This document shows, piece by piece, positions 10,314 to 63,415 of a DNA stretch of 64,000 nucleotides (its first letter is position 1; each line of letters starts with the position of its first letter). The translations under genes and the position numbers were made by a program. The notes beneath the pieces are model-generated. The model was not told the DNA's origin and made no database searches. It saw only the letters and a list, made by a program, of their open reading frames with translations. The DNA is from an uncultured Eubacteriales bacterium. Lineage in GTDB: Bacteria; Bacillota; Clostridia; Oscillospirales; CAG-272. The stretch covers positions 6,541-70,540 of the forward strand of contig CABUHS010000010.1 of assembly GCA_902491535.1 (NCBI GenBank). The letters run 5' to 3'.

Positions 10314-10387
10314 AGTATTTTCCTGTATATGATTTCCGGGGACTGCTGTCTCTCGACAGAGACAGACATGTCTCCTGTTTTTTTATT

Positions 10388-42464: not shown

Positions 42465-44042
42465 TTAACTCTTTTCTTCTCTATTTTCTCCGGAAATGAC
42501 AATTTGAGAGAAAAGAGAAAATACAAAAAAAGAGACGACAACTTTCTGTCGAAAATTGCCGTTTACTGGTGCGCTTGAGCATTCTATAATCGAACCGTTT
42601 ACTTCATCCAGTGTAACGGTAGTATTTGCTTCGTTGTAGTTAAAGGTCAAAACTAGCTTATCGTCATATACATACACTGCATTCACAAAGCTGTCAATAA
42701 GTCTTTCCTTGTGTTCTTTCTTTGTTACTTCCATACTGCGAAATCTCTGCAGCCAGAAAATCAATCCCTCTTTGGTAAGAGGAGGGCGTTTCAGTTCTTC
42801 TTTAATAATCTTTAATTCCAATTCTTCCTTAGTGCTCTCAAGCTCGATCATACGCTGCTTTGTAGTAGCCGTGATGATCCCCCGTTCGATAGCATTCATC
42901 AGATTTGCTATCGCTCTTTCAGTTTCGCTCAACTGCTGTTTCAGAAGGATAACAGATGTGTTTTCGGTGCTGGCTACACGGAGTACGATGTTTGCAATAT
43001 CTTCAATTACATCGTCCTGCATCAGTACCTCTTTGGTATAGCGAACAACAATATCTTCAATCCATTCTTTCTTTACGGTCTTCTTATCACAGGTATGCTT
43101 GTACTTCACGTTATTGCATTTATAGTACCGATGCACCGTGCCGTTCCTGCCCGTACCGCTTTCACCTGTCATAAAAACACCACATTTACCACAGAACAAT
43201 TTGGTTGTCAGCAGATATTCGTCCTCGGCCTTGTGCCTTGCGGCGGCTTTTTTGTTTTTCTGTAATTGTTCCTGCACCTTGTTGAATAAATCCGTTGGAA
43301 CGATCTGTGGTATACCGTTTTCGTGAACAATGTCTCTAAACCTATATTCACCGATGTAACGCCTATTTTTCAGCATATCCGTTACAATATTGATGGATAT
43401 TTTTGTACCAAGTGATGTTGTTAATCCTTTGGCATTTAACAGGGTTACGATCTCCTTAATGGTCTTGCCTTTGGCGTACCACTTGAATGCTTCTAATACC
43501 CACGGAGCTTTCAGTGGGTCAATCTCAAATAACTGTTCTTTGTTAATAACATATCCGATAGGAACCGTACCACCGTTGAATTTGCACTTTAAGGCATTTT
43601 CCGTAAGACCTCTTGTGACCTTTTCAGCAAGCTCTGCGGAGTAGTATTCCGCCATTCCTTCAAGCACGGATTCAAGCAGTATGCCCTCTGAACCATCGGA
43701 TATGTGCTCCGTTGCCGAGACCACTCTGACATTGTTCTTTTTAAGCACATTCTTATAACGAGCTGAGTCGTAACGATTTCTTGCGAAACGGTCTAACTTC
43801 CATACGATGATTACATCAAACTTCTGTTTTGAACTGTCTTTAATCATCTTTTGGAATTGCGGTCGGTTATCCGTCTTGGCCGACAAGGCTCTGTCAATGT
43901 ACATATCCAGAATGGTAATGCCTTGCCGTTGGGCAAATGCTGTGCATTCACGCACCTGACCGTCGATGCTTTCCTCGCGTTGGCTGTCCGAGGAATATCT
44001 TGCATAAATCACTGCTGTCATTCGCGGTTCACCTCCTGCCAA
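42465..44042 (-). CDS. Large serine recombinase (resolvase/invertase N-domain, recombinase domain and zinc ribbon)
   Basis: 525 aa. The catalytic N-terminus is AVIYARYSSDSQ. It also has DRFARN, a Cys-rich ribbon (CGKCG...YYKCNN) and a C-terminal coiled coil. Confidence 0.9.
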   Translation of the reverse strand: MAGGEPRMTAVIYARYSSDSQREESIDGQVRECTAFAQRQGITILDMYIDRALSAKTDNRPQFQKMIKDSSKQKFDVIIVWKLDRFARNRYDSARYKNVLKKNNVRVVSATEHISDGSEGILLESVLEGMAEYYSAELAEKVTRGLTENALKCKFNGGTVPIGYVINKEQLFEIDPLKAPWVLEAFKWYAKGKTIKEIVTLLNAKGLTTSLGTKISINIVTDMLKNRRYIGEYRFRDIVHENGIPQIVPTDLFNKVQEQLQKNKKAAARHKAEDEYLLTTKLFCGKCGVFMTGESGTGRNGTVHRYYKCNNVKYKHTCDKKTVKKEWIEDIVVRYTKEVLMQDDVIEDIANIVLRVASTENTSVILLKQQLSETERAIANLMNAIERGIITATTKQRMIELESTKEELELKIIKEELKRPPLTKEGLIFWLQRFRSMEVTKKEHKERLIDSFVNAVYVYDDKLVLTFNYNEANTTVTLDEVNGSIIECSSAPVNGNFRQKVVVSFFVFSLFSQIVISGENREEKS

Positions 44043-44255
44043 TATTCCGTTTTCTTTTGTACCATAGTTTTATCACGCCCTTTCAATTTGATTGAATGCA
44101 ATATTATAAAATTTCCACCTTATCCCAATAAACTCCACCTTTCTGTTTTCAAGAATGCGGAGTTAATATAAAAAGCAAGGTTTTATTTGGCAAGAAAAAA
44201 TGCAAATCAATCTAATGTTCTGCTTATCTAAAAGATATTTTGCTTGTTAGAGATA

Positions 44256-47200
44256 TTATCCAATGCCGAAAAATCTTTCAAAAAATGCTTGCAATTTTTG
44301 GATCACGCTCTGCTTCTTTTCAGCACGGTTTCCACCGCCAAAGCGGGACATCGGCGGCATAAGCTTATCAATTGCCGTACCGCTTGTCTTTACCGAACCT
44401 TCACGGAATGCCACATCAATAAATTTTCGTGTTTCCTCTTCTTTTAGATTTTCTTCTTTAATAATAGTAACAAGCTGCCTTTCTTTTTCCTCGGCTACAT
44501 AGCTGCGCCACTCAATCATTACATCGGAAACCTCGTTAATACCGGCAATGAAGTTCTCGATAAGCGCCTTTTTGCTGCGCAGTTCAGGACTGGCATCGAC
44601 AGCCTTGCGGATTGTGATAAGCACTTCCTTATCATCGCAATGGGAATCGTGATACTTCTTGACAAGCATCAGGATATAGTCAATATTGATTTCAATTTGC
44701 TTTATCAGCTCGATTTCAAAAACAATATCGTCTGTGATGTCCTCTTTTTCTCCTCCGGGCTTGCGATTCTTCCATTCATCACGGAGATCCTGATATCTGC
44801 CGAGATAATCCTGCAAGTCACGCTCGGAAAGAATTTCGTTCCCTGCAAACTCATCGAATGATGTCAGCAGATTACGCATACGAAGGATAGCACCGAACAG
44901 AACGATAAATTCCTTCTGTTTTTGTTCTCCAATAATGCGCTCATCTGAAAGAGGAAACTTTGTTGTCAGTTCTTCTATCATATCTGCATAGCCGGGATGA
45001 TATTTTTCGTCACTATCCTCGTAACCGAAATAATAGTCCCTGTATCCGCGCATCAGCACAATGCCGCCCGCTTTTTTGTCACCGAAAAGCGAGATAGCGT
45101 CATCAGTACGCTTTTGCAGATTGCGAAAACAAACAATATTACCGAATGTTTTAATAGAATTGAGAATGCGGTTGGTACGGGAATACGCCTGAATCAATCC
45201 GTGCATTTTCAGGTTTTTATCTACCCACAGTGTGTTAAGCGTAGTTGCGTCAAAGCCTGTCAGGAACATATTGACCACAATGAGCAAATCAAGCTCCTTG
45301 TTCTTCATTCGCAGTGACACATCTTTATAGTAGTTTTGGAATTTGTCGCCGTCTGTGGAATAGTTGGTATGGAACATCTCGTTGTAATCGGCAATAGCTG
45401 TGTCAAGAAAATCACGGGAGGTTGCGTCAAGTGAGGAAGTATCTTCGGGATTTTCCTCGTCAAGAAGTCCGTCTGTTTCCGCTTCGTTTGCTCCGTAACT
45501 GTAAATAAGGGCTACCTTTAACCGCCGTTGCGGATTTTCAGCCATCTGACGCTTAAATTCCGCATAATACAGCTTAGCGGCGTCCACAGACGAAACCGCA
45601 AAAATGGAGTTGAAACCGCTGACACGCTGTTTTTGCTTGATTTCCTCAATAGTTGCTTTTCCGCTTGCAGACGCAACATCAGCTATATTTTGCAAAACAT
45701 TGAATGTATATGTTTTATCCCTACGGTAAGTTTTTTGATCAAAATGAGTTAGTATGTAATCCGTCACCAAGCGAATGCGTTCGGGAGATTGAAACGCCTT
45801 TTCACGGTTAATATCCCAAACCTCTTTATCATCAATATCAGGCTCTTTATCCATCGTTTTGATATAGTCCACACGGAACGGCAGCACGTTTTTATCATTG
45901 ATAGCATCTACGATAGTATAAGTGTGTAATTGATCGCCGAAAGCCTGCTCTGTTGTGCGAAGTGTGGGATTTTTGCTTACCCCTGCATTAACTGCAAAGA
46001 TAGGTGTTCCCGTAAATCCGAATAAGTGATATTTTTTGAAATATTTCGTAATTGCTAAGTGCATATCACCGAATTGACTGCGGTGACATTCGTCAAAGAT
46101 AATGACCACACGCTTATCAAAAACGCTGTGACCTGCGTTCTTTTTGATAAAGGTAGCAAGCTTTTGAATGGTAGTAATAATAATTTTTGCGTTATCGTCT
46201 TCAAGCTGTTTTTTCAGTATCGCAGTAGAGGAATTGCTGTTCGCCGCGCCTTTTTCAAAGCGGTCATATTCCTTCATCGTCTGATAGTCAAGGTCTTTTC
46301 GGTCTACCACAAACAGAACCTTGTCGATATAGTCCAGCTTAGACGCAAGCCGCGCCGTCTTAAACGAAGTCAGCGTTTTACCGCTGCCTGTTGTATGCCA
46401 AATATAACCGCCGCCTGCAACACTGCCGTACTTCTTATAATTGTTTGCAATCTCAATACGGTTCAAGATACGCTCTGTGGCAACAATTTGATAAGGACGC
46501 ATAACAAGCAGCATATTTTCTGCCGTAAAGACGCAGTAACGGGTTAATATGTTAAGCACGGTATGCTTGCAGAAAAAGGTCTTTGTAAAGTCCACAAGGT
46601 CAGGAATAATGCGGTTGTTCGCATCCGCCCAAAAAGAGGTAAATTCAAAGCTGTTGCTGGTTTTCTCTTTTTTCGCCTTATGAGAATAGGCGTCTTTTAT
46701 ATGATTGAAACGGGTGGTATTGGAATAATATTTTGTGTTCGTGCCGTTAGATACCACAAATATCTGCACAAATTCGTACAAACCGCTTGCCGCAGGGAAG
46801 CTGTCACGCTGATAACGGTCTATCTGATTGAACGCCTCGCGTATCGGCACACCACGACGCTTTAACTCAATATGTATAAGCGGCAGCCCATTTACAAGAA
46901 TTGTCACATCGTAACGGTTATCGTGCGCAGCGCCCTCATCGGCGGAAACGGCATATTGATTGATGACTTGCAGCGTATTGTTATGAATATTCTTTTTATC
47001 AATCAGCGTGATATTTTTACTTTCTCCGTTATCACGCCTCAGTACCTGCACATGGTCTTCCTGAATAAGGCGTGTTTTTTCCGCTATGCCGTCTTTGGAA
47101 TTGGCAAGCACCTCATGAAAAAAGCGATTCCACTCATCATCGGAAAAACGATAATTATTTAGCTTTTCAAGCTGTACACGCAAATTATCAATCAAATCCT

Positions 47201-47369
47201 TTTCTTTATGAAGGGTCAGATATTCATAGCCTAAATCTTTCAGCAGGCGGATAAATTCTTTTTCAAGCTCCGCTTCGCTTTGATAAGCATCCGAACGTTT
47301 TTCCTGCGGCTTGTATTCGGTTACAACAGTGCTTTCGCTGCTTTGGGCAACAATATTGAAATACGGCAT
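44256..47369 (-). CDS. hsdR: Type I restriction enzyme, R subunit
   Basis: 1037 aa with an SF2 helicase core (HTTGSGKT, DECHRSQ) and a type I HsdR N-terminal nuclease region. It is last in the hsd operon. Confidence 0.92.
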   Translation of the reverse strand: MPYFNIVAQSSESTVVTEYKPQEKRSDAYQSEAELEKEFIRLLKDLGYEYLTLHKEKDLIDNLRVQLEKLNNYRFSDDEWNRFFHEVLANSKDGIAEKTRLIQEDHVQVLRRDNGESKNITLIDKKNIHNNTLQVINQYAVSADEGAAHDNRYDVTILVNGLPLIHIELKRRGVPIREAFNQIDRYQRDSFPAASGLYEFVQIFVVSNGTNTKYYSNTTRFNHIKDAYSHKAKKEKTSNSFEFTSFWADANNRIIPDLVDFTKTFFCKHTVLNILTRYCVFTAENMLLVMRPYQIVATERILNRIEIANNYKKYGSVAGGGYIWHTTGSGKTLTSFKTARLASKLDYIDKVLFVVDRKDLDYQTMKEYDRFEKGAANSNSSTAILKKQLEDDNAKIIITTIQKLATFIKKNAGHSVFDKRVVIIFDECHRSQFGDMHLAITKYFKKYHLFGFTGTPIFAVNAGVSKNPTLRTTEQAFGDQLHTYTIVDAINDKNVLPFRVDYIKTMDKEPDIDDKEVWDINREKAFQSPERIRLVTDYILTHFDQKTYRRDKTYTFNVLQNIADVASASGKATIEEIKQKQRVSGFNSIFAVSSVDAAKLYYAEFKRQMAENPQRRLKVALIYSYGANEAETDGLLDEENPEDTSSLDATSRDFLDTAIADYNEMFHTNYSTDGDKFQNYYKDVSLRMKNKELDLLIVVNMFLTGFDATTLNTLWVDKNLKMHGLIQAYSRTNRILNSIKTFGNIVCFRNLQKRTDDAISLFGDKKAGGIVLMRGYRDYYFGYEDSDEKYHPGYADMIEELTTKFPLSDERIIGEQKQKEFIVLFGAILRMRNLLTSFDEFAGNEILSERDLQDYLGRYQDLRDEWKNRKPGGEKEDITDDIVFEIELIKQIEINIDYILMLVKKYHDSHCDDKEVLITIRKAVDASPELRSKKALIENFIAGINEVSDVMIEWRSYVAEEKERQLVTIIKEENLKEEETRKFIDVAFREGSVKTSGTAIDKLMPPMSRFGGGNRAEKKQSVIQKLQAFFERFFGIG

Positions 47370-47372
47370 TGA

Positions 47373-48005
47373 TTAAGCCCCCTTTACAATAGCGATAACG
47401 GCAATAATAATTGAAACAAGAGAAGCAATAGAAGCAAACAGACCGAAAAGATAATTGCGATTATAAAACCTGTCGACCTCTATACTTGCCATTCGGAACA
47501 AACGAGACAAAATAAAAGCAATGAAACCATATAAAATTAAAAATATGTTTTGATACCACGGCAATTGAATCATGTTTATCATTATAAATTGTGTAGGTAC
47601 AACTGCAATAAATAATATAGAAAGAATCAATAAACACCATTTCATTAGCCGAAAGAATAATGAAATGAATGATTTTAACAGTGCTAAAGAAGCTCTATCT
47701 CCCTTTATATCTTTTTTGGGCAAGAACAATATTTTTATGAATACCTTTATCTCATTAAAAAACTTTTTGATTTTGCTCGTATGCTCCTTGTATCCTATTT
47801 TATCACGCCATTCTGCAAGAGTAGCTTTGCGTTGCTCTTCCTCTTTTTGCACTTTTATTTCTTCAGCCTCTACAATAGCGCAAGCAATGATGTGCTGTAT
47901 TTCTTCCGCACTCATATTTTCCGGCAGATTCATATTGACCGATTGCAAAGGTTTTGAAGCAGTATTTTGTTTTGCTTTTTTCTTGTTTTTGCCTTTTCCC
48001 ATCAA
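47373..48005 (-). CDS. Unknown membrane protein embedded between hsdS and hsdR
   Basis: 210 aa with a Lys/Glu-rich N-terminal 75 aa, then 3-4 hydrophobic helices. A 4-nt ATGA overlap joins it to hsdS, and a 3-nt gap separates it from hsdR. Confidence 0.6.
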   Translation of the reverse strand: MMGKGKNKKKAKQNTASKPLQSVNMNLPENMSAEEIQHIIACAIVEAEEIKVQKEEEQRKATLAEWRDKIGYKEHTSKIKKFFNEIKVFIKILFLPKKDIKGDRASLALLKSFISLFFRLMKWCLLILSILFIAVVPTQFIMINMIQLPWYQNIFLILYGFIAFILSRLFRMASIEVDRFYNRNYLFGLFASIASLVSIIIAVIAIVKGA

Positions 48006-49180
48006 CTTGTTTTCTCCTTAAAAGTCAATAGCTTGTTTCTGTAATATTCATATTGTTTTTGCCTTGCTTCGATTTCGGCGGGTATACCAATTTTGAGATC
48101 AGTGCAAATCGCCTCAAAATTATCAAGGACATTAACAAGGCGTTCCTGTACATCTAATGGCGGAATTGATATAAATATCCTACCTATGTCATCTTTGTTG
48201 ATTTTTGTTGGAGTTGCATTCCAAAGTATGCGCTTTGCCAGTTCTGATCTGCCGATACCGCTTTCTAAGTAATGCTTTAAATATTTACTGCTTAAAATAC
48301 TATGGTTAGGGCGTAACAAAGCAAGCGAAACATAATACGCCAAATCATTGTCATTTTCCACAATTGCACATTTACCAATAACACCTGCCGTAATCCTTGT
48401 CATAAATAAATCACCAGTATGTGGTTTTATTTTGAACTTTGCAAACGCCTCTGTGGAAATGAATTTTTTTGTAGCATAAAGATTGTCTATATCTTCAACA
48501 CTTACAAAAGGTACGCCGTTTTCAGTATATTCTGGAGTCTGATGCGTTCCGTCATACACCTCGCATACCGCTCCAAGTGTTACCTTTTCTACAGGCATAT
48601 TTTGTTCAAGCAATGTATCTCTATAATACTCATACTGTTTTTTTCTTGCCGTAAGCTCTGCCGTAAGCTCTGCCGTAAGCTCTGTGAAATTGTCCAATAT
48701 ACGGACAATTTCACGCTGTACAGGCAGCGGTGGAACAGGAATTATAAAATCCTCTGTAATTGATAAAGATATTTGTGGTAACGATCCCATTCCAGAAGCC
48801 GCAGTTCGGAAGTATTCCATATTATTCTTTAATACATAATAAAGATATTTAACCGAGGTTATTTCATCGGAAGTATACGCCCACATCTCATTTTTAAAAG
48901 TAAAGGATTTATCATAAAACACAGCATCAATCACACCACGAGACTGAACTAAAACTGCAGGAACTCTTGTTATATTTGCATTTGAGATATCTTTTTCGAC
49001 AGCATTAATAACTGTCTTTCCTCCTGCAAACACCCGAATTTCTCCATTAGGATTCTCTATTTGCTTCATTTTGGCGGCTGTTATGGGTGTACCCTTGAGC
49101 CTTTTATACACTTCTTTGATTTTTTTATATTCCACGCCGTTCGGACAAAATTCCTGCAACAATTTTTCAAGGTTGCTCAT
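48002..49180 (-). CDS. hsdS: Type I restriction enzyme, S (specificity) subunit, IC-like with a TAEL repeat spacer
   Basis: It has two target-recognition halves separated by the conserved FTELTAELTAELTARKKQYEYY, and the C-terminus repeats ...ARQKQYEYYRNKLL. The start at 49180 (MSNLEKLL) follows a GGAG RBS; the longest ORF would start at 49246. Confidence 0.9.
   Translation of the reverse strand: MSNLEKLLQEFCPNGVEYKKIKEVYKRLKGTPITAAKMKQIENPNGEIRVFAGGKTVINAVEKDISNANITRVPAVLVQSRGVIDAVFYDKSFTFKNEMWAYTSDEITSVKYLYYVLKNNMEYFRTAASGMGSLPQISLSITEDFIIPVPPLPVQREIVRILDNFTELTAELTAELTARKKQYEYYRDTLLEQNMPVEKVTLGAVCEVYDGTHQTPEYTENGVPFVSVEDIDNLYATKKFISTEAFAKFKIKPHTGDLFMTRITAGVIGKCAIVENDNDLAYYVSLALLRPNHSILSSKYLKHYLESGIGRSELAKRILWNATPTKINKDDIGRIFISIPPLDVQERLVNVLDNFEAICTDLKIGIPAEIEARQKQYEYYRNKLLTFKEKTS
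48648..48683 (-). repeat. Three tandem 12-nt repeats inside hsdS encoding (TAEL)n
   Basis: gccgtaagctct occurs three times on the plus strand (48648, 48660, 48672). Confidence 0.9.
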
Positions 49181-50081
49181 GACCTTCTCCTTTTTCAGTA
49201 ACTTCCGGAATAGTGATGTTATATAACGATTCCATATTACTAACACACATCGGATATATAATATAGTCCCACGGCAACAATTTTATCAGATATGGTATGT
49301 TTTCTGTCCGAATGACCTCATACCTCTCTTGATTAATAAAAATCACATACTTTATTTCGTCTCTGAATTGATAAACATATTCCAAAAAATTTTTATCCCT
49401 ACTGAGCCGATACTCTTTAAATTCTTCTTGTTCCCGCATATCACCGTGTGACATACCGTCTATCCAGTCGTGATAAACATTTTCGCACATTGCAAGAGCA
49501 AATTCTGAATATTCGATCATAAATATACCGATTTCTTTTGAACCGGTATATTGTTTGCAACTCTCCAAATGATGTTTCCAGTTGCTTTTTAATGACTTAA
49601 CTAAAAACTCATAAGTATGTACTGGATTTGTATGTGCCCACGATTTTGAACGCACCTCATCAAAGCTCGGAGTTTCATTCCACTCTTGCATAATCTTTTC
49701 TGTTTCTGACTCTACTTTTGATATAAATATACTTTCTTCCTTTTTGTGAACAGAGCCTTTTCTGTTGGTTTGAGACGAGGTTATCTGAAAATGTTCTATA
49801 AATCCATTGTCAAAAACAAAATCAGGAAACTTGCTTAAATTAGAATTAGCTTTAGCTATTCGCAAAATATTTTCAAATTCTTTCCGATCGCGCTCCAAAA
49901 GACCGAAATATGATTTACGGCAATCTGAATTAACAAAATAAGTTCTTTCATTTTTGAACTCGTCATCTGACACATCTAAATAAGTTTTATGTGTAAATGG
50001 ATTCTTCATAGGTTGACCGTTTTTGCAGAATATTGCTTCTTTAAGAATATTCAGACACTTTAATTCTTGATCACCACGCAT
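49167..50081 (-). CDS. Unknown protein embedded between hsdM and hsdS
   Basis: 304 aa with no motif I can assign, no TM segment and no P-loop. A 3-nt gap follows hsdM, and it overlaps the hsdS start by 14 nt. Confidence 0.6.
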   Translation of the reverse strand: MRGDQELKCLNILKEAIFCKNGQPMKNPFTHKTYLDVSDDEFKNERTYFVNSDCRKSYFGLLERDRKEFENILRIAKANSNLSKFPDFVFDNGFIEHFQITSSQTNRKGSVHKKEESIFISKVESETEKIMQEWNETPSFDEVRSKSWAHTNPVHTYEFLVKSLKSNWKHHLESCKQYTGSKEIGIFMIEYSEFALAMCENVYHDWIDGMSHGDMREQEEFKEYRLSRDKNFLEYVYQFRDEIKYVIFINQERYEVIRTENIPYLIKLLPWDYIIYPMCVSNMESLYNITIPEVTEKGEGHEQP

Positions 50082-50084
50082 AAT

Positions 50085-51677
50085 TTACCCCTCAATCTCC
50101 TTAATAATCCTATCAATCTCGTCCCGTAACACTTGTTCCCGTGCTACGATTTCAGCAATTTCCGCATTCAGTTTCACAATATCGATTTTCTCACGGGTAT
50201 CCTCTGCCTCTACATAGGTGGAAACCGAAAGGTTATAGGCGTTCTGCTCGTTGCCTACCTCATCGTTTGGCACAAGACGGCTGAAATACTGCTCGTCCTT
50301 TCTTTCCGCGGCGGCAGTAACGATACGCTGAATGTTCGCTTCGGAAAGTCGGTTATTTTTCGTCACCTTTACAAATTCCCGTGAAGCGTCTATAAACAGA
50401 ATGGAATTATCCGTTTTGTTCTTTTTCAAAAGCATAATATCAACAGATATGGTGACATTGAGGAAAAGATTTGACGGCAGTTGAATGATAGCGTCCACAT
50501 AGTTGTTATCCACAAGGTATTTGCGGATTTTCTGCTCTGCGCCGCCGCGGTACATGATGCCTGGGAAACAGACGATCGCCGCCGCTCCGTTGTTAGCAAG
50601 CCATGAAAGGCTATGCATAATAAACGCCATATCGCCTTTGGACGCAGGCGCAAGCACCCCGGCGGGAGAAAATCGAATATCGTTTATTAACAGCGAATTT
50701 TTATCCCCCTCCCACGGAACAGAGAACGGCGGATTGGAAACGATCAGCTCAAAAGGCTGGTCGTCCCAGTGCTGTGGGCTGAGCAGCGTATCTTCACGCA
50801 CAATGCTGAATTTATCGAAATCAATGTTATGTAAAAACATATTGATACGGCAAAGGTTATAGGTAGTCAGGTCGATCTCCTGCCCGAAAAATCCCTGTTC
50901 AATATTTTCTTTACCCAAAACCTTTTCAACCTTCAACAGAAGCGAACCCGAACCGCAGGCAGGGTCATATACCTTGTTGATTCTTGTCTTTCCGATTGTG
51001 CCGAGTCGGGCAAGCAGTTCGGAGACATCCGCAGGAGTAAAATACTGGCCGCCCTTTTTGCCTGCGTTGGCGGCATACATACCCATCAGATATTCGTATG
51101 CGTCGCCGAACAGATCGGGGTTGATACCGTCCGCCTGAAACAACGGCATTTTTTCTACGCCGTTCAAAAGCTCTGCAAGCACCTTGTTTCTCTTGGCTAC
51201 TGTTTCTCCGATGGATTTGCTGTTTACATCGAAATCGTCAAACAGTCCGGCAAAATCATTTTCCGCTTCACCGCTGGCGGCGCTGCTCTCAATATGGTTA
51301 AAAACGCGTTCTAAGGTTTCGTTTAGGTTTTCGTCCTTATCCGCACGGGCACGTACATTGCAGAAAAGCTCGCTCGGCAAGATGAAAAATCCCTTTTCCT
51401 GCACCAGTCCCTCGCGGGCAGATTCTGCCTCCTCATCGGACATCTTTGCATAATCAAAATCGGGGTTGGGTTCTCCTCTTGCAATAGCAGCGGCTCGCTC
51501 ACCTTTGTTGATATAGGCGGCAAAATTTTCGGAAATATAGCGGTAAAACATTGTACCTAAAACATAGGACTTGAAATCCCACTCGGACACATGCCCCGCG
51601 TGAACAAGGTCGGTAGCAATTTTATATATCGTGCGGAACAGCTCGTCCCGCTCCTGATCTTTCTTTATGTCAGCCAT
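50085..51677 (-). CDS. hsdM: Type I restriction enzyme, M subunit (N6-adenine DNA methyltransferase)
   Basis: 530 aa with SAM motif VYDPACGSGSLL and catalytic motif IVSNPPFS, plus an HsdM N-terminal domain. Confidence 0.93.
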   Translation of the reverse strand: MADIKKDQERDELFRTIYKIATDLVHAGHVSEWDFKSYVLGTMFYRYISENFAAYINKGERAAAIARGEPNPDFDYAKMSDEEAESAREGLVQEKGFFILPSELFCNVRARADKDENLNETLERVFNHIESSAASGEAENDFAGLFDDFDVNSKSIGETVAKRNKVLAELLNGVEKMPLFQADGINPDLFGDAYEYLMGMYAANAGKKGGQYFTPADVSELLARLGTIGKTRINKVYDPACGSGSLLLKVEKVLGKENIEQGFFGQEIDLTTYNLCRINMFLHNIDFDKFSIVREDTLLSPQHWDDQPFELIVSNPPFSVPWEGDKNSLLINDIRFSPAGVLAPASKGDMAFIMHSLSWLANNGAAAIVCFPGIMYRGGAEQKIRKYLVDNNYVDAIIQLPSNLFLNVTISVDIMLLKKNKTDNSILFIDASREFVKVTKNNRLSEANIQRIVTAAAERKDEQYFSRLVPNDEVGNEQNAYNLSVSTYVEAEDTREKIDIVKLNAEIAEIVAREQVLRDEIDRIIKEIEG

Positions 51678-51682
51678 TGATA

Positions 51683-51904
51683 TTACTCCTTATCTTTAAG
51701 CCATTCAGACTCTATTTCTTCAAAAGGGAAACCCCTGCTTTCGCAATAAGCCTTGATTTTCTTCATAGCCGTAATATTCGGCTTGGTTTTTCCGTTTTCC
51801 CAGCGATTTATCGTACCCACAGATACATTCAGCAGTTTAGCAAACTCTTCTTGTGATAGAAGCGCCCTTTTACGCATATTCCGTATCAACTCACCTAATG
51901 ACAT
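51683..51904 (-). CDS. Small XRE-family HTH protein, first gene of the R-M operon (controller-like)
   Basis: 73 aa with HTH LSQEEFAKLLNVSVGTINRWENG. It ends 5 nt before the hsdM start. Confidence 0.8.
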   Translation of the reverse strand: MSLGELIRNMRKRALLSQEEFAKLLNVSVGTINRWENGKTKPNITAMKKIKAYCESRGFPFEEIESEWLKDKE

Positions 51905-51926
51905 TGTTCTGCCGTTCTCCTTTCAA

Positions 51927-51976
51927 AAGGTTGCTACTATTATAACATAAACCTATCATTTTTTCAAGGTTGCTGC
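51927..51976 (-). promoter_or_regulatory. Promoter of the HTH-hsd operon flanked by a direct-repeat operator candidate
   Basis: On the minus strand, TTGAAA (51962-51967), a 17-nt spacer, then TATAAT (51939-51944). The repeat aaggttgct(a/g)c occurs at 51927-51937 and 51966-51976, bracketing the promoter. Confidence 0.55.
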
Positions 51977-52470
51977 TCATTCTTATATTTACTTGCATTT
52001 TATCGGTACGCCTGCAATATTGTAGGCGTACCTTTTGATATATACAAAGGTGGAATCTGTAATAAAGTAAGGAGGAATTTCAATGCTCAGAAAAGCAATA
52101 TCAGAAAGTGATTGAGCAAAACAGCATTCGGCTCACGAGGCTGTGTGTGACCGAAAGAGTGCAGATTTAGATGGAAAAAGAATGTACAAGAAGAATCTGC
52201 AAGCAGCCAACCGTCAGCGATAGACGGACATTTATCGTACCTCCACCGTACAGGAGCTTTGTACGGCAATGTTTCCGGGATTTCCGTTGTAAGAACAAAT
52301 CCCTGCCGAACGCTTACTATACAAGCGGCAGATTTATGATCTGTATCGGCATTGCGCAGTCAGCTTTGTCTGACGCTCTGTTATTCAGAGTTGCGCTGGG
52401 GCAGTCTTCACTAATGGGAAGATGAGTCCATAGTCCTAACCTCTTTTACAAATGAATAGTAGTTCTCTGC

Positions 52471-53060
52471 GATGAAATGAATGACCAGCTTTTCGGAATG
52501 ATACCATCTTTTCGATATGATAATGATTATCTTTCCGATATGATGTATGACCTTCCTTTTGTCGCCGTTTCTATCGGGCGACAGCAAGATAGAAACGGCG
52601 GCGAGGAATCGTCCGAGAGGCCGTGCGGCAAGGCATTCAGGGATTACAAGAAATGAAAACGGGAGAAACGGCAGGTAAAGTCGCTGAAACTGCCAATGGG
52701 TAAACTATGCCTTGCCGCGTTATGATATGCCGTTTCATGTGATAAATGAATCTATACTTCGGAATGATAATTTAATATGACATACTTTTCGGAAGTCACT
52801 CAGGATTTATCATAGATTTGTATTTGCACGCCTGCGGCGCGTTCCGGCTGTTTGATGTTCAATGATAAGCATGCAAAGAGAACCCGTCATTAAACATCAA
52901 ACTGTCGGCTGAAAATATCCCTCTTAAAGATTCGTATCAGATTGCAAACCCTTCATTTCGATATGATTTATGACCGTCCTTTCAGAATGATGCGTTTTCA
53001 AAATACATACCGTTTTGGAAGAATATGATTTCATTTCGGAATGATCGCAAAAATATGACC
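52471..53060 (+). repeat. Iteron-like field: at least 8 same-orientation copies of TTCG(G/A)(A/T)ATGAT, often followed by TATGAC(C)
   Basis: Copies lie at 52492, 52511, 52533, 52758, 52957, 52981 and 53035, with variants at 52788 and 53015. TATGACC-like half sites lie at 52481, 52546, 52775, 52969 and 53053. No credible ORF is present. Confidence 0.75.
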
Positions 53061-53072
53061 TTCAATTTCAAA

Positions 53073-53116
53073 GGCGGCGACAGGAGATTTTTTTCTGTCG
53101 CCGCCGAATTTTTTTG
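53073..53116 (+). terminator. Intrinsic terminator-like hairpin upstream of the tyrosine recombinase gene
   Basis: 11-bp GC-rich stem ggcggcgacag / ctgtcgccgcc followed by gaattttttt. Confidence 0.6.
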
Positions 53117-53212
53117 CTTTGCAAAAATTCGCTCTATTTTTTACTTGCCAAAATAGATACTCCTTTTCATATTCTTTTTGCCTGAATCAAAAAGGCAAAA
53201 AATTATGAAGGA

Positions 53213-54280
53213 GTGATGCCAATGAGAGAAATCTCAAAAAAGATGGACATTGTAACCGACATTTTGGACACCGCCTTCGACAAGCCGTGGGAAAAGTATT
53301 CTGCTGAAGAATACAAAATCCAGCTTGAAGAAACAAAGTCCAAAGTCCGGGAACTAACGCCCGAACAAGAGCTGAAATTGATGAATAAGCGTATGAATCT
53401 GCGAATACAGGTGACCGCCATTTACAAAAAGGACAGACATGGCAGCCAAGCAACCCGCAAGCGATACTATCAAGCCGCCTGCTATGCCTGTGATTATATT
53501 GCCGGCACCTGTAATTTACAGAAATTCGCAAACTTTCATCCAAAGCATTTCCGTGAAGTTGCAGAGTATTGGAAAACAACAAAAGAACTAAATACGGTTT
53601 ATACCGAGCTTACAGGTTTGCGCAAATATTGTGAGTATGCAGGGTGTAAATACAAGATGCCTGAAAACAAGGAACTGAATCTGCCGAAGCGCGAACCGAC
53701 AAAATATAACCGCGCATGGCTACCTCACGAAATTCAGAAAGCAAAAGAACTTGCTGAAACAATGGGTAGATTCGATGTCCGGGATGCTATTGAACTCGGA
53801 GAAAAATTGGGTCTTCGGATTATCGAAGCCTGTCAGTTCAAGGTCGGAGATGTGAAATCCGCACTCGGTTGGGGCGGTTTGGAAATCAAGAGTAAGGGCG
53901 GTCAGATACGGTTTGTCCCGATTGAAACTGAAGAACAGAAGGAGCTTCTGCAACGCCTGTATCGTGAAGCAAAAGAAAAAGGGTTAATGGACGACGATTT
54001 TATTCTGAGCAAGACAATCAAATACGGTCCGCGTATGGAAAAGAAGTCTATCGAAAACTGGATATACAATCATCGCAAAAAGTTTACAGACCCAAATCGA
54101 GAGCAAACGATAAAGCGCGGTAAAAAGCCGCGGGTTAAAAACATTGTCTTCCACGGGCTTCGCCACAGCTACACACAGGAACGGGGCAAACATTTGCAAG
54201 GCGATCCTAGAAGACAGCAGAAGCTCAGCGAGGGCTTGGGTCATCATCGGTTGTCGGTGACGAATATTTACAAAGAATAA
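53213..54280 (+). CDS. Tyrosine recombinase / phage-integrase family protein
   Basis: About 352-355 aa. It has C-terminal catalytic motifs HGLRHSY and LGHHRLSVTNIY (the Tyr nucleophile sits near the end). The likely start is ATG 53222, 8 nt after AAGGAG. Confidence 0.8.
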   Translation: MMPMREISKKMDIVTDILDTAFDKPWEKYSAEEYKIQLEETKSKVRELTPEQELKLMNKRMNLRIQVTAIYKKDRHGSQATRKRYYQAACYACDYIAGTCNLQKFANFHPKHFREVAEYWKTTKELNTVYTELTGLRKYCEYAGCKYKMPENKELNLPKREPTKYNRAWLPHEIQKAKELAETMGRFDVRDAIELGEKLGLRIIEACQFKVGDVKSALGWGGLEIKSKGGQIRFVPIETEEQKELLQRLYREAKEKGLMDDDFILSKTIKYGPRMEKKSIENWIYNHRKKFTDPNREQTIKRGKKPRVKNIVFHGLRHSYTQERGKHLQGDPRRQQKLSEGLGHHRLSVTNIYKE

Positions 54281-54291
54281 GGAGGAGATAA

Positions 54292-54459
54292 GTGGGCAAA
54301 GAGGTTAAAATCGTTCTCAAATCCCATATACCTGAAGATGAAATCGAAGCATTAGCGAAATGCTTCCTGCCGGACATATTAGACTTTTTTGAATCCGAAG
54401 AAGGCAGACAAGAATTTGAACAGTGGAAAAAGAAACAATCTGAAAAAAGCAATAAATAG
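54292..54459 (+). CDS. Small hypothetical protein (55 aa) coupled to the recombinase gene
   Basis: An AAGGAGGA RBS overlaps the recombinase stop and the start is GTG. The translation is VGKEVKIVLKSHIPEDEIEALAKCFLPDILDFFESEEGRQEFEQWKKKQSEKSNK, followed by a terminator. It is not in the ORF track because it is under 60 aa. Confidence 0.55.
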   Translation: MGKEVKIVLKSHIPEDEIEALAKCFLPDILDFFESEEGRQEFEQWKKKQSEKSNK

Positions 54460-54462
54460 ATA

Positions 54463-54505
54463 ACGACGGTACGAAGACTAATCCTCGTACCGTCGTCATT
54501 TTCTT
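54463..54505 (+). terminator. Intrinsic terminator
   Basis: 12-bp stem acgacggtacga / tcgtaccgtcgt followed by cattttcttt. Confidence 0.8.
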
Positions 54506-54524
54506 TAACTACGCAGTTTCATTG

Positions 54525-54575
54525 AAAAAAACAACAAACCCGAACGTTTCACCGATTGGTAAAAGGTTCGGGTTT
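54525..54575 (-). terminator. Terminator downstream (minus strand) of the tRNA-Leu 3' fragment
   Basis: 9-bp stem aacccgaac / gttcgggtt; on the minus strand it is followed by gttgttttttt. Confidence 0.65.
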
Positions 54576-54583
54576 GAATGCTT

Positions 54584-54642
54584 TGGTGCGGGTAAAAGGA
54601 CTTGAACCTTCACGAAGTTGCCCCCACTAGAACCTGAATCTA
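54584..54642 (-). other. 3' fragment (about 59 nt) of a tRNA-Leu(CAG)-like gene; probable att-site remnant, not a functional tRNA
   Basis: The minus strand reads TAGATTCAGGTTCTAGTGGGGGCAACTTCGTGAAGGTTCAAGTCCTTTTACCCGCACCA. This gives an anticodon loop, a long variable arm, a T-arm GGTTCAAGTCC, the acceptor 3' strand and an encoded CCA. No matching 5' acceptor strand or D-arm follows. Confidence 0.7.
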
Positions 54643-55107
54643 AATTGTATATTATTAAAAGGGAAGGAAAGCTCTGAATTATCGCAAATTAATGCAAAAT
54701 ACCCTATAAATTGCTTAATTATATAATAATAAGGACGTTTCGATTTTATTGTGTGTTAGAATTTCCTGTGATTTCGTTAGAAAAATCGTTAGACAGACAA
54801 TCACCGTTTTAGCCCCGTTTTTACTACGCTTAATTTTATCATTGACGTAACAGAAGATCAACTTATTTATACTGTTTTTATAAAAAAGAAATACCAAGTA
54901 TAATAGCTTTGCCAGATATTTTTGGTGTAACAAAACAATTAGCGTATATTTATTCGTTCCTGAAATCTTGCAAGACAGCGATACTACATACATGTCAGAG
55001 ATATTCATGCGGAGACATATATACTCCCTAAATGCAGAAAAAATAAAAACAGTACTGTTTATGTGAATTGTTGAATAAAAAATAATAAATATTTTTTTGT
55101 AAATATA

Positions 55108-55136
55108 TTGACATAGTTTGGCTAATATGTTAAAAT
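55108..55136 (+). promoter_or_regulatory. Strong sigma-A promoter with an extended -10 at the head of the island
   Basis: TTGACA (55108-55113), a 17-nt spacer ending in TGT, then TAAAAT (55131-55136). Confidence 0.55.
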
Positions 55137-55716
55137 ACAAACAAGATAAAGTCAGATTAATAAATCTAACGATATCTTATATATAATACCCAGTTTAATA
55201 TTTCTCAGGAATTACCTTTTAATAAGAACAGGACATCCCCCTAACGTATCACTTGATTTTTTCAGTATAAGGTATGAGGCTTGTTATGAAAAACTGTTTT
55301 TCCAAGGCGTGTATATCCCTTAATGAAATAACGGTATCAGACTGCAAAAATGATGCAATAAATGCTATTGCTATGTCCAAATTTAATATGTGCGTAAACA
55401 GCGCATTGCTTGCTTGATAGAGGCTTGCTTTGCGCTGTTTTGTCATATAATACTCTATCATGTGCTTGATTATATTTTTATAACAAAACATTAATTATAC
55501 TAGAAATAATTGGAGTGTTTTATGATATTGTTGATTATTATGAAGAAAAGGATTAATATGTGGGGTTAGAAATTCAAAAAAATCAATACTGAATATTCAA
55601 TATTCTAATCCAATTTAATATACAATTTTTTTAGTACGATGTCATAGGTATTGAATAGCATAAGCGTATTAAACAGAAACATTAAGAAGTATAAAACTTG
55701 CGGAGGAAATAAAAAA

Positions 55717-57117
55717 ATGTCAAGGAACTTAAAAATGTCTAAGTATAACTTTATCTGTTTAGATAAAGAAGGAGATTTAATTTTATATAATTTTCTAAAT
55801 GGAATATCAAGTTTAACTAAGATAAAAAAATCTGATATTGATAGTTTCACTAATGGATTTTTGACGAATTCTGAGAAACTTTATGCGGCTTGTAATGAAT
55901 ACAAAGAAATGGCTAATACATTGCTTAAGTTAGGTATATTAGTAGATGATGACACAGACGAAAGTGTTTTATATGATGCAAAACAGTATAGCGAAATTTA
56001 TGATACAAAGCTATACCTTACTATTTTCCCAACAGGAAAGTGTAATTTTAGATGCCCATACTGTTTCGAAACCTCACAAGATTTTAGTCGAGATACAATG
56101 ACGAGTGATTCGCAGGATGCAATACTTAAATTTGTTCAAAAGACAATATCTAATCATAGAATGCTTCATGTATCTTGGTTCGGTGGTGAACCGTTAGTAG
56201 CATCCGAAGTAGTTGAAAATTTATCCGATAAATTTATCCAAATTTGCAATGTAAGACATATACCCTATTCTGCTGATATGGTAACAAACGGCTTTTTACT
56301 TGATTCTAATATGTTTGATACACTTTATAAATTACAGGTATATGATTATATGATTACTATTGATGGATTTAAAAAACAGCATGATAAAAGGAGATTTACA
56401 TATGATGGTAAGGGTTCATATGATACAATTATGGATAACTTGTTAAAGATACGAAATAATAAGCAGTATAAATTTGCTAATATAATGATTCGTGTCAACA
56501 TGTCAACTGGATTTTTGGAAATGCTTGACGAATTTGTGAATTTTCTTGGTTCATCATTTGCCGATGATCCGCGATTCAAATTCATGTTTGTGCCTGTAGT
56601 CAAGTTTTCTAGTTCTCATTTTTCAAATGAAATTATCTATTCTAATCATAAAGAATTGTACATGCGTCTTTCTAAAAATGATGTTTATACGAATAAACTA
56701 TATCCTAATATGCTAAAATTAACTTCAATACTTCCGCAGCAAAAGTGCCCGGCATGCTTAAAAAATTCATATGTTATTACTTCCGATTTGAGTGTGTATA
56801 AATGTAATGCTCACTATGATTTTGATATCAATAAAATCGGGCGAGTAAATTTAAATGGTGATCTATTAATTGATGAAACTCTTCATAGAAGGTGGTACTT
56901 AATGAAAAAGTCTATTCAGAGAATACCCGAATCTTGTAATGACTGTTTCTACTCTCCTTGTTGTCTAAATATCGATTCTGGTTGTCCAGTCAGCTATCTT
57001 AAAACGAATCCAGATGTAACATTATGTCCGTTGAAAGATGAAAATAAAAAAAATAATATTGTTGAAACAATTTTATACGCTGCTGATATATATCCCTGTA
57101 CGACACTTGCATTATAA
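55717..57117 (+). CDS. Radical SAM / SPASM-domain peptide maturase
   Basis: The start at 55717 follows a GGAGGA RBS. It has a CxxxCxxC cluster (GKCNFRCPYCFE) and a roughly 100-aa N-terminal extension (possible RiPP recognition element). The C-terminal Cys-rich SPASM region is CPACLKN...YKCNAH...CNDCFYSPCCLNIDSGCP. Confidence 0.88.
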   Translation: MSRNLKMSKYNFICLDKEGDLILYNFLNGISSLTKIKKSDIDSFTNGFLTNSEKLYAACNEYKEMANTLLKLGILVDDDTDESVLYDAKQYSEIYDTKLYLTIFPTGKCNFRCPYCFETSQDFSRDTMTSDSQDAILKFVQKTISNHRMLHVSWFGGEPLVASEVVENLSDKFIQICNVRHIPYSADMVTNGFLLDSNMFDTLYKLQVYDYMITIDGFKKQHDKRRFTYDGKGSYDTIMDNLLKIRNNKQYKFANIMIRVNMSTGFLEMLDEFVNFLGSSFADDPRFKFMFVPVVKFSSSHFSNEIIYSNHKELYMRLSKNDVYTNKLYPNMLKLTSILPQQKCPACLKNSYVITSDLSVYKCNAHYDFDINKIGRVNLNGDLLIDETLHRRWYLMKKSIQRIPESCNDCFYSPCCLNIDSGCPVSYLKTNPDVTLCPLKDENKKNNIVETILYAADIYPCTTLAL

Positions 57118-57284
57118 TTTTATGTATATATAATTATAATCATAAAATCAAACTACTTTTCAATTTAAATATTGTAACTTTAAAATGGTATTATATCGTA
57201 AATTTCAAAATTTTGTTACAAAAGATTTATATAAATATTAGTATAATTGTTTTTAAAATTTGATTTAGAGGAGGTAAATAGTAT

Positions 57285-57542
57285 ATGATATTTACATATC
57301 AAATGCTTGTCAAAATATTAGTTGATAAATTAGGCTTTGTTCTTCTTGATGGTAGACAAGATGATTTTGCTATTAATGAATACGTTACTGATTCTGTAAC
57401 GTTTATCAAATTAATTATTGCTATAGAAGAGACTATTGGAAAAGAATTAACAGATGACTTTCTTGATTACGAAATGTTGAGTTCCGCAAAAGGCTTTGCG
57501 GCAAAAATAGATTGTTTCATTGATTCTTCTAAGGATCAATAA
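57285..57542 (+). CDS. Acyl carrier protein-related small protein
   Basis: 85 aa. TDSVTFIKLIIAIEETIGKELTDDFL matches the ACP helix II region with a DS(L/V) phosphopantetheine-site-like serine. A good RBS (GAGGAGG) precedes it. Confidence 0.7.
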   Translation: MIFTYQMLVKILVDKLGFVLLDGRQDDFAINEYVTDSVTFIKLIIAIEETIGKELTDDFLDYEMLSSAKGFAAKIDCFIDSSKDQ

Positions 57543-57605
57543 ATACTATTAAATACTGGGATTAATTAATTTTGAGCGTTACTATAGTTTTTATAAAAGA
57601 ACTAA

Positions 57606-57620
57606 AAACGCGACGCGTTT
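57606..57620. promoter_or_regulatory. Perfect 15-bp palindrome AAACGCG-A-CGCGTTT just upstream of the precursor RBS (operator candidate)
   Basis: It is a GC-rich dyad in an otherwise AT-rich stretch, and it ends 4 nt before AAGGAGG. Confidence 0.4.
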
Positions 57621-57640
57621 AAGAGAAGGAGGTGAATACT

Positions 57641-57775
57641 TTGAAAAAGATCTTAAAAAAGAAGATAAAATTTTCATCGAATGCTATTCGTTATTTTTCC
57701 GGTGAACTTGTTCAATATTGGAAACCAGAGAATTTTCCAGATGGTACTTCTGGTACTTGTCATTATACGTGTTAA
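57641..57775 (+). CDS. Candidate RiPP precursor peptide (44 aa), not in the ORF track
   Basis: An AAGGAGGTG RBS lies 7 nt before a TTG start. The translation is MKKILKKKIKFSSNAIRYFSGELVQYWKPENFPDGTSGTCHYTC, with a basic leader-like N-terminus and a Gly/Ser/Thr/Cys C-terminus. It lies between the ACP-like and protease genes. Confidence 0.6.
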   Translation: MKKILKKKIKFSSNAIRYFSGELVQYWKPENFPDGTSGTCHYTC

Positions 57776-58111
57776 CTATAATAATACCGTTATAAATTAT
57801 AGTAATATTGATAGTTATTCACTATGTTAAACGAAGTAATGAATGATTAGAAATGTTATAGCAGTTTTTAATCATCGCGTTATTCTCCTAATTTTAGAAG
57901 ATTGATTTTTTTGCTATGTGTATGTAGAAACTATGGTAACGCTAAGTTTTTACATATTTTGATTATTTCTTCACTGAAATAAAATTTATATATAGTATGC
58001 AGCAATAGTATATTGTTTCGTATGGGTTTGTTTTTGATAAGCGTTATTCACCCAAAAGAATAATATAATCTGCATTAACAAGTACTTTGAGAAATGAGGT
58101 GAAATAACATT

Positions 58112-59902: not shown

Positions 59903-59947
59903 ATATTTGCTGATAATAAGGAATGGTAAAAAGGAGATTATATTAAT

Positions 59948-60352
59948 ATGGAAGAAAAAATTAAACTTTTGTCAATAGGAAAAAAAAGGGCAAAAAAGAC
60001 GAATTTAGAGGGATGGGCGAAAATTGTAGAAAGATACGCTCCGGATATGTATGATTTGTTGTATGGAGCTGGGGAGAAGGATGCATTAAAAAAAGTTCGC
60101 GAACTCAGACCTGAGATAATATTGATATTGCCAAGTATATTGCAAAATGACTTAAAAGATGGTTTGAGTTTATTAAAAAAAATAAAGGAACTGCATCCTG
60201 AAGCAGCTGTATTTGTATGTATGGGTATGGTGGATGATGAGCAGGATGCGTTTGACGAATATAAAGCTTGTGGTGCATATAAATGCTATTCAGCACCTGT
60301 AAGTATGGATGCATTATTTCATGATATGTATGTAGCATTAAATTTGGAATGA
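59948..60352 (+). CDS. Stand-alone receiver-like (CheY-fold) protein with a degenerate phospho-acceptor site
   Basis: 134 aa. A REC-like pattern (KVRELRPEIILILPS...GLSLLKKIKELHPEAAVFVCMG...GAYKCYSAPVSMDAL) is present. However, the acidic pocket, the acceptor Asp and the conserved Lys appear replaced. Confidence 0.5.
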   Translation: MEEKIKLLSIGKKRAKKTNLEGWAKIVERYAPDMYDLLYGAGEKDALKKVRELRPEIILILPSILQNDLKDGLSLLKKIKELHPEAAVFVCMGMVDDEQDAFDEYKACGAYKCYSAPVSMDALFHDMYVALNLE

Positions 60353-60378
60353 TTAAACATGGGAGGACAATAGAAACC

Positions 60379-63401: not shown

Positions 63402-63415
63402 ATGTTTGAATATTT

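Follow-up and report, generated by a model that had tools for sequence, protein, structure and literature searches.

Two uncharacterised genes, orf304 and orf210, lie inside a type I restriction-modification (R-M) operon of an uncultured Eubacteriales bacterium, and the question that they raise is whether they work as a pair or independently of each other. The operon is found in a stretch of 64,000 nucleotides (assembly GCA_902491535.1, contig CABUHS010000010.1, positions 6,541 to 70,540), referred to here as the window, and forms one packed minus-strand unit with the gene order HTH, hsdM, orf304, hsdS, orf210, hsdR, where HTH encodes a small helix-turn-helix protein. An earlier note, made from the sequence alone, had described this six-gene operon, and all of its open reading frames (ORFs) were found where the note had placed them. 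The note went on to propose that orf304 (a sensor) and orf210 (a membrane effector) make up one module that is guarded or triggered by the R-M system. The survey of related loci does not support this proposal. orf304 and orf210 are two independent passengers, one in each of two recurrent insertion slots, which we call the hsdM-hsdS slot and the hsdS-hsdR slot. Both are real genes: homologue searches yielded 281 clusters for orf304 and 190 for orf210, the ratio of nonsynonymous to synonymous substitution rates (dN/dS) is ~0.2 for each against relatives of 50-95% identity, and both are under purifying selection across 28-95% identity.

The survey of recurrence inside hsd operons, one of the checks suggested in the earlier note, gave a simple answer for orf210. 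The 72 orf210 loci were gathered from look-ups (three divergent and one 95%-identical), 57 loci of a metagenome scan, one viral contig and four loci seeded with orf304. In all 72, down to 28% identity, the gene lies in the hsdS-hsdR junction, and none was found elsewhere. Of the 67 loci whose contig extends further, 66 have hsdR immediately downstream (a gene for the kinase Stk2 intervenes in the other, and five more loci reach a contig end), and hsdS is immediately upstream in 65 loci, with extra cargo between the two genes in five and a contig end in two. For orf304, a census of 34 genome loci was made, with one genome scanned per species. A relative is located directly after hsdM in 24 of these loci, down to ~32% identity, and an hsdS of the type IC lineage comes directly next wherever the contig continues and the locus is intact. 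Elsewhere, orf304 relatives were found beside Gabija GajA/GajB and PDC-S31 (L025), beside DRT UG5-nitrilase and an ABC ATPase (L031), overlapped by 8 nt by an Stk2 kinase gene and accompanied by a C5 methyltransferase (L026), and with C5 or D12 methyltransferases, type II restriction endonuclease models, a TPR-ATPase and an MmeI-like methyltransferase (L014 and L027-L029). Those on IMG/VR contigs lie in hsd operons or after C5 methyltransferases. The earlier note had named homologues in mostly housekeeping contexts as evidence against a defence role; the orf304 loci outside hsd operons are not housekeeping ones.

The proposed two-gene module is very improbable in light of these distributions, and they already largely refute it. 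The two genes do share one translationally coupled operon in the window, and they are found together in L001, L015, L021, L032, L038, L051, L080, L082 and L088. However, their co-occurrence is about what independent assortment predicts. orf210 is present in four of the 13 orf304-bearing operons that have a readable hsdS-hsdR junction, hsdS abuts hsdR directly in four of the same 13, and most of the remainder hold other genes there (an uncharacterised 251-aa protein, an uncharacterised 184-aa protein, a PUA-like protein, or an ADP-ribosyltransferase with AbiH). Conversely, roughly a third of the orf210 loci with a readable hsdM-hsdS junction contain a member of the orf304 superfamily, and orf304 relatives occur in contexts that have neither orf210 nor a type I system. 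A sensor-plus-effector module is unsupported because the two genes assort independently.

A natural exchange between two closely related operons illustrates the same independence. The closest relative of the window operon (L101-L103) has the order tyrosine integrase, HTH, hsdM, slot gene, hsdS, orf210, hsdR and large serine recombinase, and in L101 the island that carries it is in a different chromosomal setting, adjoining his genes. In blastn comparisons, the window and L101 are 90.5% identical from 54638 to 50085 (the exact position of the hsdM stop codon) and 92.4% identical from 48082 (the last ~80 nt of hsdS) to 42562, through orf210, hsdR and the recombinase. The only parts of hsdS common to both are a central 121 nt (48623-48743) and these last ~80 nt. 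L101 has a gene of a 390-aa family at the position of orf304 and retains orf210 at 95% amino-acid and 92% nucleotide identity, a combination that also argues against a joint module. Therefore, orf304 and both target-recognition domains of HsdS have been swapped, and orf210 is part of the conserved backbone. Recombination took place within conserved sequence, at the 3' end of hsdM and in the shared regions of hsdS, and orf304 is exchanged by the same recombination that makes new hsdS specificities. That the hsdS-hsdR slot is loaded by recombination as well is shown by a scar in L057 (5851-6624), where the frame upstream of orf210 reads as an HsdR N-terminal peptide (MSYFNIIAATTENTVVTEYKP) followed by an HsdS C-terminal peptide (…KKQYEFYRDKLLSFKE). 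The scar shows how cargo genes of 225 and 279 aa came to lie between the hsdS and the orf210 of this locus.

The hsdM-hsdS slot of orf210 operons holds orf304, a 385-aa family, 255-aa intermediates, one of at least nine unrelated families, or nothing; more than nine families were counted among roughly 60 loci in which this junction was readable, and with orf304 the slot has no fewer than ten alternative cargo families. Members of the 385-aa family are distantly homologous to orf304: hhalign gives a probability of 84% (E = 7.6e-6), the motif PDF...G-IEHF is common to both, and the 255-aa forms join the two by BLAST single linkage. The superfamily so defined is the commonest occupant of the slot in this biased sample. 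Among the other cargo, L033 has an ADP-ribosyltransferase and AbiH (10229-12213), L030 has a PUA-like protein (11968-12591), and L075 and L078 have, in the hsdM-hsdS slot, proteins that by eye are RES-like and nucleoside-deoxyribosyltransferase/TIR-like. Full-length Stk2 (PADLOC E = 1e-211 to 1e-226) was found in L026 (9932-12236, Pilibacter termitis) and in L041 (7646-9154), where it is the gene between orf210 and hsdR mentioned above. Several other slot cargo families carry no annotation. One such protein, of 209-226 aa (MQKRFNEYFAKV…DKPD…IGIEV), is translationally coupled upstream of orf304 relatives in two unrelated contexts (L023 1046-2613 and L025 1464-2875), one inside an hsd operon and the other beside Gabija, and it also fills the hsdM-hsdS slot alone (also L050, L063 and L094). 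This 'cluster 2' protein was rejected as a relative of orf304 (hhalign probability 1.7%).

What orf210 does has to be approached through its position and its predicted topology. The protein is basic (isoelectric point (pI) 9.8) and, as the earlier note had read it, consists of a charged N-terminus followed by transmembrane (TM) helices. The N-terminus is polybasic, Lys-rich and disordered, and hydropathy and AlphaFold2 place three hydrophobic helices at residues ~111-140, 149-172 and 185-207. Conserved elements include an amphipathic cytosolic helix (…EEMQHIIA-AIVEAEEIK…), a loop before the last TM helix (RLFRMASIE-DK-EDRNY) and, as the best-conserved part, the last TM helix itself (GLFASI-S-VSIIIAVIAIVKG), which is rich in Ser, Ala and Gly. 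The note's description of both extra genes as embedded and uncharacterised held up: neither protein matches Pfam, NCBIfam, PADLOC v2.0.0 or PHROGs, and among the PADLOC models are those of the PDC and HEC 'guilt-by-embedding' candidates. The best PADLOC hit of orf304 was CARF5 at E = 0.066. The remote homology searches and the Foldseek searches with AlphaFold2 models that the note had suggested gained no usable relative for either protein. For orf210, a Pfam scan of 40 family members (alignment A2) found no match or recurrent family, a PDB profile search with the same alignment gave chance-level matches only, and the alpha-pore-forming toxin AhlB was rejected as a fold relative (Foldseek E = 0.15, template modelling score 0.24, root-mean-square deviation 30) since the match is long-helix noise. 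Models of PrrC, P-loop or ATPase proteins in Pfam, NCBIfam and PADLOC match neither orf210 nor orf304. In the literature we found nothing specific on a membrane protein between hsdS and hsdR, nor on either family.

Defence genes embedded in type I operons, and the hsdS-hsdR junction as a hotspot for them, are already established. The hsdS-hsdR slot is known to hold PrrC (PMC3874165, PMC12707154), DarTG2 in a type I R-M operon of the EPEC RRDM (PMC12255303) and TgvAB in one of V. cholerae VPI-2 (PMC11411939), and a guilt-by-embedding survey reported PrrC to be almost exclusively embedded (bioRxiv 10.1101/2024.01.29.577857). The embedded-defence context invoked by the earlier note proved apt for orf210, which in every locus has the position of prrC in EcoprrI (hsdM-hsdS-prrC-hsdR). 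This likeness is positional only. Like PrrC, orf210 is essentially known only as an embedded gene, and because of these two correspondences a guard role is the leading analogy for it, one that we put forward as a tentative possibility. The two proteins are otherwise different: PrrC is soluble and ABC-ATPase-like with a C-terminal anticodon nuclease, whereas orf210 has three TM helices, no ATPase or nuclease motif and no similarity to PrrC. Small multi-TM proteins in defence operons are also known as RexB-type, holin-like and SLATT/2TM effectors, and the Gly/Ala/Ser-rich last TM helix of orf210 would permit helix packing or oligomerisation as in small membrane effectors. The searches showed no resemblance to these families in sequence or fold, and they lack the conserved cytosolic N-terminus of ~100 residues that orf210 has. 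On the tests run, neither orf210 nor orf304 can be assigned to the PrrC/RloC, PD-(D/E)xK or membrane-effector families.

orf210 is a predicted three-TM inner-membrane protein of the backbone, translationally coupled to hsdS and hsdR. As a guard, it would use its N-terminal cytosolic helix and its loop to contact HsdR or the M2S core. Upon loss or inhibition of the R-M complex, the small-residue third TM helix would oligomerise, so that the membrane is permeabilised and the cell depolarised. We infer that its function depends on R-M because it is found solely immediately before the hsdR of this lineage. The same facts would suit a non-lethal accessory of the type IC enzyme, acting as a tether or regulator: a membrane anchor near the site of DNA entry, or a factor that controls assembly or restriction alleviation while the island becomes established. 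Its position fixed exclusively to hsdR and hsdS, its coupled translation and its conservation at the level of the backbone are consistent with such a part, the polybasic N-terminus and conserved cytosolic segments would suit binding of protein or DNA, and the operon is carried by a mobile island, for which it matters that restriction is controlled on entry. Type IA and IB enzymes were reported to be membrane-associated, and the type IC enzyme EcoR124I was not. However, hsdS directly abuts hsdR in L004, L007, L019 and L020, operons of the same lineage that lack orf210, and the gene is therefore dispensable for R-M as such. In addition, a slot without orf210 holds clear defence or toxin genes (AbiH with an ADP-ribosyltransferase, or a PUA-like protein), and in L041 the gene shares its slot with Stk2. 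Of these mechanisms the PrrC-style guard is the most likely, although we hold it to be somewhat doubtful, and the tether or regulator role, its main rival, is unlikely; what is left falls to an independent exclusion protein or a role outside defence.

orf304 is a soluble protein with a pI of 5.5, and its AlphaFold2 model is of good quality (mean predicted local distance difference test score (pLDDT) 85.8, predicted template modelling score (pTM) 0.79). Foldseek searches of the model against PDB and BFVD returned nothing below E = 0.29, and PDB profile searches with two alignments (A1 and A4) gave chance-level matches only, among them TM1526, which was rejected as a relative. Cdc123 was also rejected, as it shares only the common string 'PDFVF' (E = 0.8). 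Pfam scans of ten divergent relatives and all members of alignment A4 revealed no recurrent family, and no DNA-binding or modified-base-reader domain was detected in orf304 or the relatives scanned. In an exhaustive profile search of 1.84 billion representatives, all 419 orf304 clusters consisted of stand-alone proteins, 230-320 aa long and free of domain fusions. Among 62 diverse members, P86, D87 and E96 are invariant and F88, I95, H97, F98, S163, H171 and F187 nearly so, and the resulting signature, FPDF-x4/5-G-(F)-IEHF, lies on a predicted beta-hairpin.

This motif looks like a catalytic centre and suggests a resemblance to PD-(D/E)xK nucleases. In orf304, an invariant P-D pair is followed eight residues on by an invariant Glu on the next beta-strand, and the order of elements (helix, hairpin, helix, strand, helix, strand) is compatible with the fold. 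Against this, the third motif position is Phe (E-H-F) and not Lys, and Foldseek, PDB profiles and Pfam gave no link to a nuclease; a restriction-endonuclease-like fold was not recovered. As the motif has no Lys and there is no structural link, 'nuclease-like' goes no further than a supposition, and we treat the resemblance as a lead, not a classification. A metal-dependent nuclease, with the invariant Asp/Glu(/His) cluster on the hairpin (PDF...G-IEHF) as its active site, would nevertheless be the most likely activity of orf304, although we hold even this to be somewhat doubtful. The idea that orf304 is an acidic DNA-mimic anti-restriction protein was rejected, given that its pI is not strikingly acidic and that it has a conserved, catalytic-looking core.

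orf304 is probably a defence-related cargo that acts independently of orf210, and it may work by itself as a second-line anti-phage effector with no need of the R-M complex. We take it to be autonomous because it is interchangeable with defence and toxin genes, occurs in several unrelated defence islands, has no constant partner and retains the invariant acidic/His cluster. It could instead work with R-M systems, as an auxiliary nuclease or DNA-end processor, as a type IV-like modification-dependent partner, or as a regulator of the methyltransferase. In about 29 of 32 informative genome loci it lies beside type I or II R-M genes, frequently at the 5' margin of an operon of HTH and methyltransferase genes, its relatives on viral contigs follow two C5 methyltransferases, and there is a precedent in TgvAB, a type IV system within a type I operon (PMC11411939). 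Nevertheless, we find such a partnership improbable. The type of partner is inconsistent (type I, C5, D12 and MmeI-like all occur), Gabija and DRT are neighbours too, a DNA-binding or modified-base-reader domain was not among the domains detected, and adjacency to R-M genes is weak evidence given that R-M systems are the commonest defence genes.

We regard both genes as candidate phage-defence accessories because orf304 is swappable and enzyme-like and orf210 occurs only beside hsdR; from this context we infer any biochemical activity, anti-phage effect or interaction with R-M that is ascribed to either protein here. To the overall reading, a type IC-like operon on an island with two independent embedded accessories, we give about even credence. 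Several points weigh against it. Homology to a protein of known function was found for neither gene, and for orf210 the sequence and fold searches gave no toxin-like or pore-forming homology. The bias of orf304 towards R-M neighbours could mean service to R-M systems and not solo action, and the strict linkage of orf210 to hsdR would be expected of any accessory subunit, not of a guard alone. Furthermore, the loci were seeded with the two proteins themselves, which biases the slot frequencies, and some of them are redundant assemblies of one element. A fuller picture seems to us unlikely to hold in all its parts. In it, orf210 would found a new class of R-M guardian, kept inactive by contact with the type IC complex and collapsing the membrane once phage anti-restriction proteins disable or dissociate that complex, as PrrC does with a tRNA nuclease in place of a membrane effector. 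The hsdM-hsdS junction would be a dedicated recombination slot that shuffles new effector families, including 'PDF-IEHF' enzymes, along with the specificity domains of hsdS.

A selfish or neutral role for one or both genes, as hitch-hikers that serve the island in addiction, recombination or exclusion, for instance, and have no part in phage defence, is highly unlikely. Such passengers might be expected on an island that carries two recombinases and moves between genomes; on a Jeotgalibaca plasmid, the gene of an orf304 relative is coupled to that of a small serine recombinase, and recombination scars flank the slot cargo in L057. However, both genes are under purifying selection, the slot neighbours are overwhelmingly defence genes, and across many islands orf210 is tied to hsdR rather than to recombinases. 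The plasmid in question is NZ_CP090984.1 (L100, 6499-7816), where a distant orf304 relative overlaps the recombinase end. On Enterococcus lactis pY3-1 (L099, 7001-7626), a complete type I hsdM-hsdS-hsdR operon is closely followed by a fragmentary relative. On one IMG/VR contig (L109, 2018-6708), a relative lies a few genes downstream of genes that by eye are holin/endolysin-like; a position near the lysis cassette is where temperate phages often carry accessory or defence genes. No match was found for the operon among plasmids (megablast) or for either protein among 50,697 phage records (tblastn), and therefore orf304 and orf210 are not typical phage or plasmid genes.

In comparison with the known embedded systems (DarTG2, TgvAB and the PADLOC PDC/HEC candidates), here too uncharacterised genes are nested co-directionally between hsd genes, the hsdS-hsdR junction is a recombination hotspot, and related slots hold Stk2, AbiH and an ADP-ribosyltransferase. 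Unlike those systems, the loci described here have a second slot, hsdM-hsdS, in which cargo is exchanged together with the target-recognition domains of hsdS. Unlike free-standing systems that also occur embedded, orf210 has no non-embedded copies, and neither protein matches the PDC/HEC models. What is new is two families that PADLOC v2 does not contain and that lack fold neighbours, a membrane protein embedded as strictly as PrrC, and a second slot in which the cargo moves along with the specificity domains. Second-line defences have repeatedly been found among the genes nested in R-M operons (PrrC, DarTG2, TgvAB), and the setting here is gut Clostridia, where few defence systems have been tested. 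If orf210 does guard or tether the R-M complex, it would represent a second, mechanistically different way in which restriction enzymes are monitored by the cell. orf210 is a concrete, testable lead, both slots behave cleanly, and the hsdM-hsdS cassette slot could be mined for further effectors.

The features of the operon and its island are listed in Table 1. Four of the five junctions given in the earlier note agree with the sequence: the HTH stop codon is 5 nt from the hsdM ATG, the hsdM stop codon 3 nt from the orf304 ATG, orf304 and hsdS (ATG at 49180) overlap by 14 nt, and the orf210 stop codon is 3 nt from the hsdR ATG. The fifth, a 4-nt ATGA overlap between hsdS and orf210, has to be corrected. 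The junction reads aagTTGATGgga: the two genes overlap by 1 nt (TGATG), and orf210, read from the ATG at 48002, has 209 aa; a TTG at 48005 as the start would instead give a 4-nt TTGA overlap with hsdS. We assign the start to the ATG at 48002 because the length and N-terminus then match all homologues, which are 204-216 aa long and begin with MGK, MRK or MSK. A Shine-Dalgarno sequence lies 5-10 nt upstream of every gene in the operon, and a terminator scan found no strong or convincing minus-strand terminator within it. One promoter-like site precedes the HTH gene (Table 1), and together these signals agree with a single operon.

Table 1. Coordinates of the operon, its promoter-like site and the surrounding island in the window
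Feature	Coordinates	Strand	Basis
Promoter-like site, TTGAAA, 17 nt, TG-n-TATAAT	51939..51967	-	Region's top score (11/12), sigma-70-like with extended -10; consensus match only
HTH, 73-aa XRE-type protein, operon gene 1	51683..51904	-	Pfam HTH_3 2.5e-14
hsdM, type I methyltransferase subunit	50085..51677	-	TIGR00497 2.5e-193; N6_Mtase and HsdM_N
orf304, soluble 304-aa protein of an unannotated family, exchangeable cargo between hsdM and hsdS	49167..50081	-	
hsdS, two target-recognition domains and central ELTA/TAEL repeat	48002..49180	-	Methylase_S 1.4e-31; PADLOC Specificity_I 6.9e-90
orf210, 209 aa from ATG, fixed in the hsdS-hsdR slot	47373..48002	-	Hydropathy and AlphaFold2 helices
hsdR, type IC-like restriction/translocase subunit	44256..47369	-	HSDR_N, SWI2_SNF2/ResIII, T1R_D3-like, EcoR124_C; PADLOC REase_I E = 0
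Mobile island carrying the operon, ~12 kb	42562..54638		Extent of identity to L101 3136-15439
Segment replaced relative to L101 (orf304 and both hsdS target-recognition domains)	48083..50084	-	No blastn similarity save the central hsdS block

The locus, a type I R-M operon in the earlier note, is type IC-like. HsdM, HsdS and HsdR are present together, HsdM matches TIGR00497, HsdR matches TIGR00348 (7.9e-170) and has an EcoR124-type C-terminus (PF12008 EcoR124_C, residues 772-1033, 1.1e-71), and HsdS has a central ELTA/TAEL repeat that reads ...FTELTAELTAELTAR... in the window. A TAEL-type central tandem repeat in HsdS is a hallmark of type IC systems, and a change in repeat number changes the length of the spacer in the recognition sequence. 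The number of ELTA/TAEL units varies among the related operons, with three in the window and L035 and four in L002 and L041.

The HTH protein is likely to be a controller or repressor of the operon. It has weak PADLOC matches to control proteins and to the N-termini of mad1 and RmrA, and the same gene is found upstream of hsdM in related loci. Just upstream of the operon promoter there is a hairpin with a 12-bp stem (52005-52032). The ~1.3 kb between HTH and the integrase (51905-53212) has no convincing ORF, yet it is ~90% conserved with L101.

The genes that bound the island encode a large serine recombinase at 42465-44042 and a tyrosine recombinase at 53213-54280. At its boundary, beyond 54.6 kb, G+C content falls from about 0.4 to about 0.28, and a tRNA-3'-like fragment (T-arm and acceptor stem) is located at this left boundary of the island and G+C break (~54577-54640, minus strand). 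The fragment may be a remnant of an attachment (att) site. ARAGORN and Rfam searches detected no tRNA gene or relevant Rfam family at the island, and no clear att direct repeat was found at its ends. The neighbouring block (54700-64000) has a very low G+C content (0.26-0.32 versus ~0.43 elsewhere). With genes for a radical SAM protein (55651-57117), a DUF1611-like P-loop protein (58112-59902) and an ABC transporter ATPase (60692-62164), this block could be a cluster of separate origin for peptide modification and export. Elsewhere in the window, and unrelated to the hsd operon, the plus strand at 27483-27533 matches the Rfam small RNA (sRNA) family SpF59 (ldcC RNA) with 65 bits against a gathering threshold of 37.

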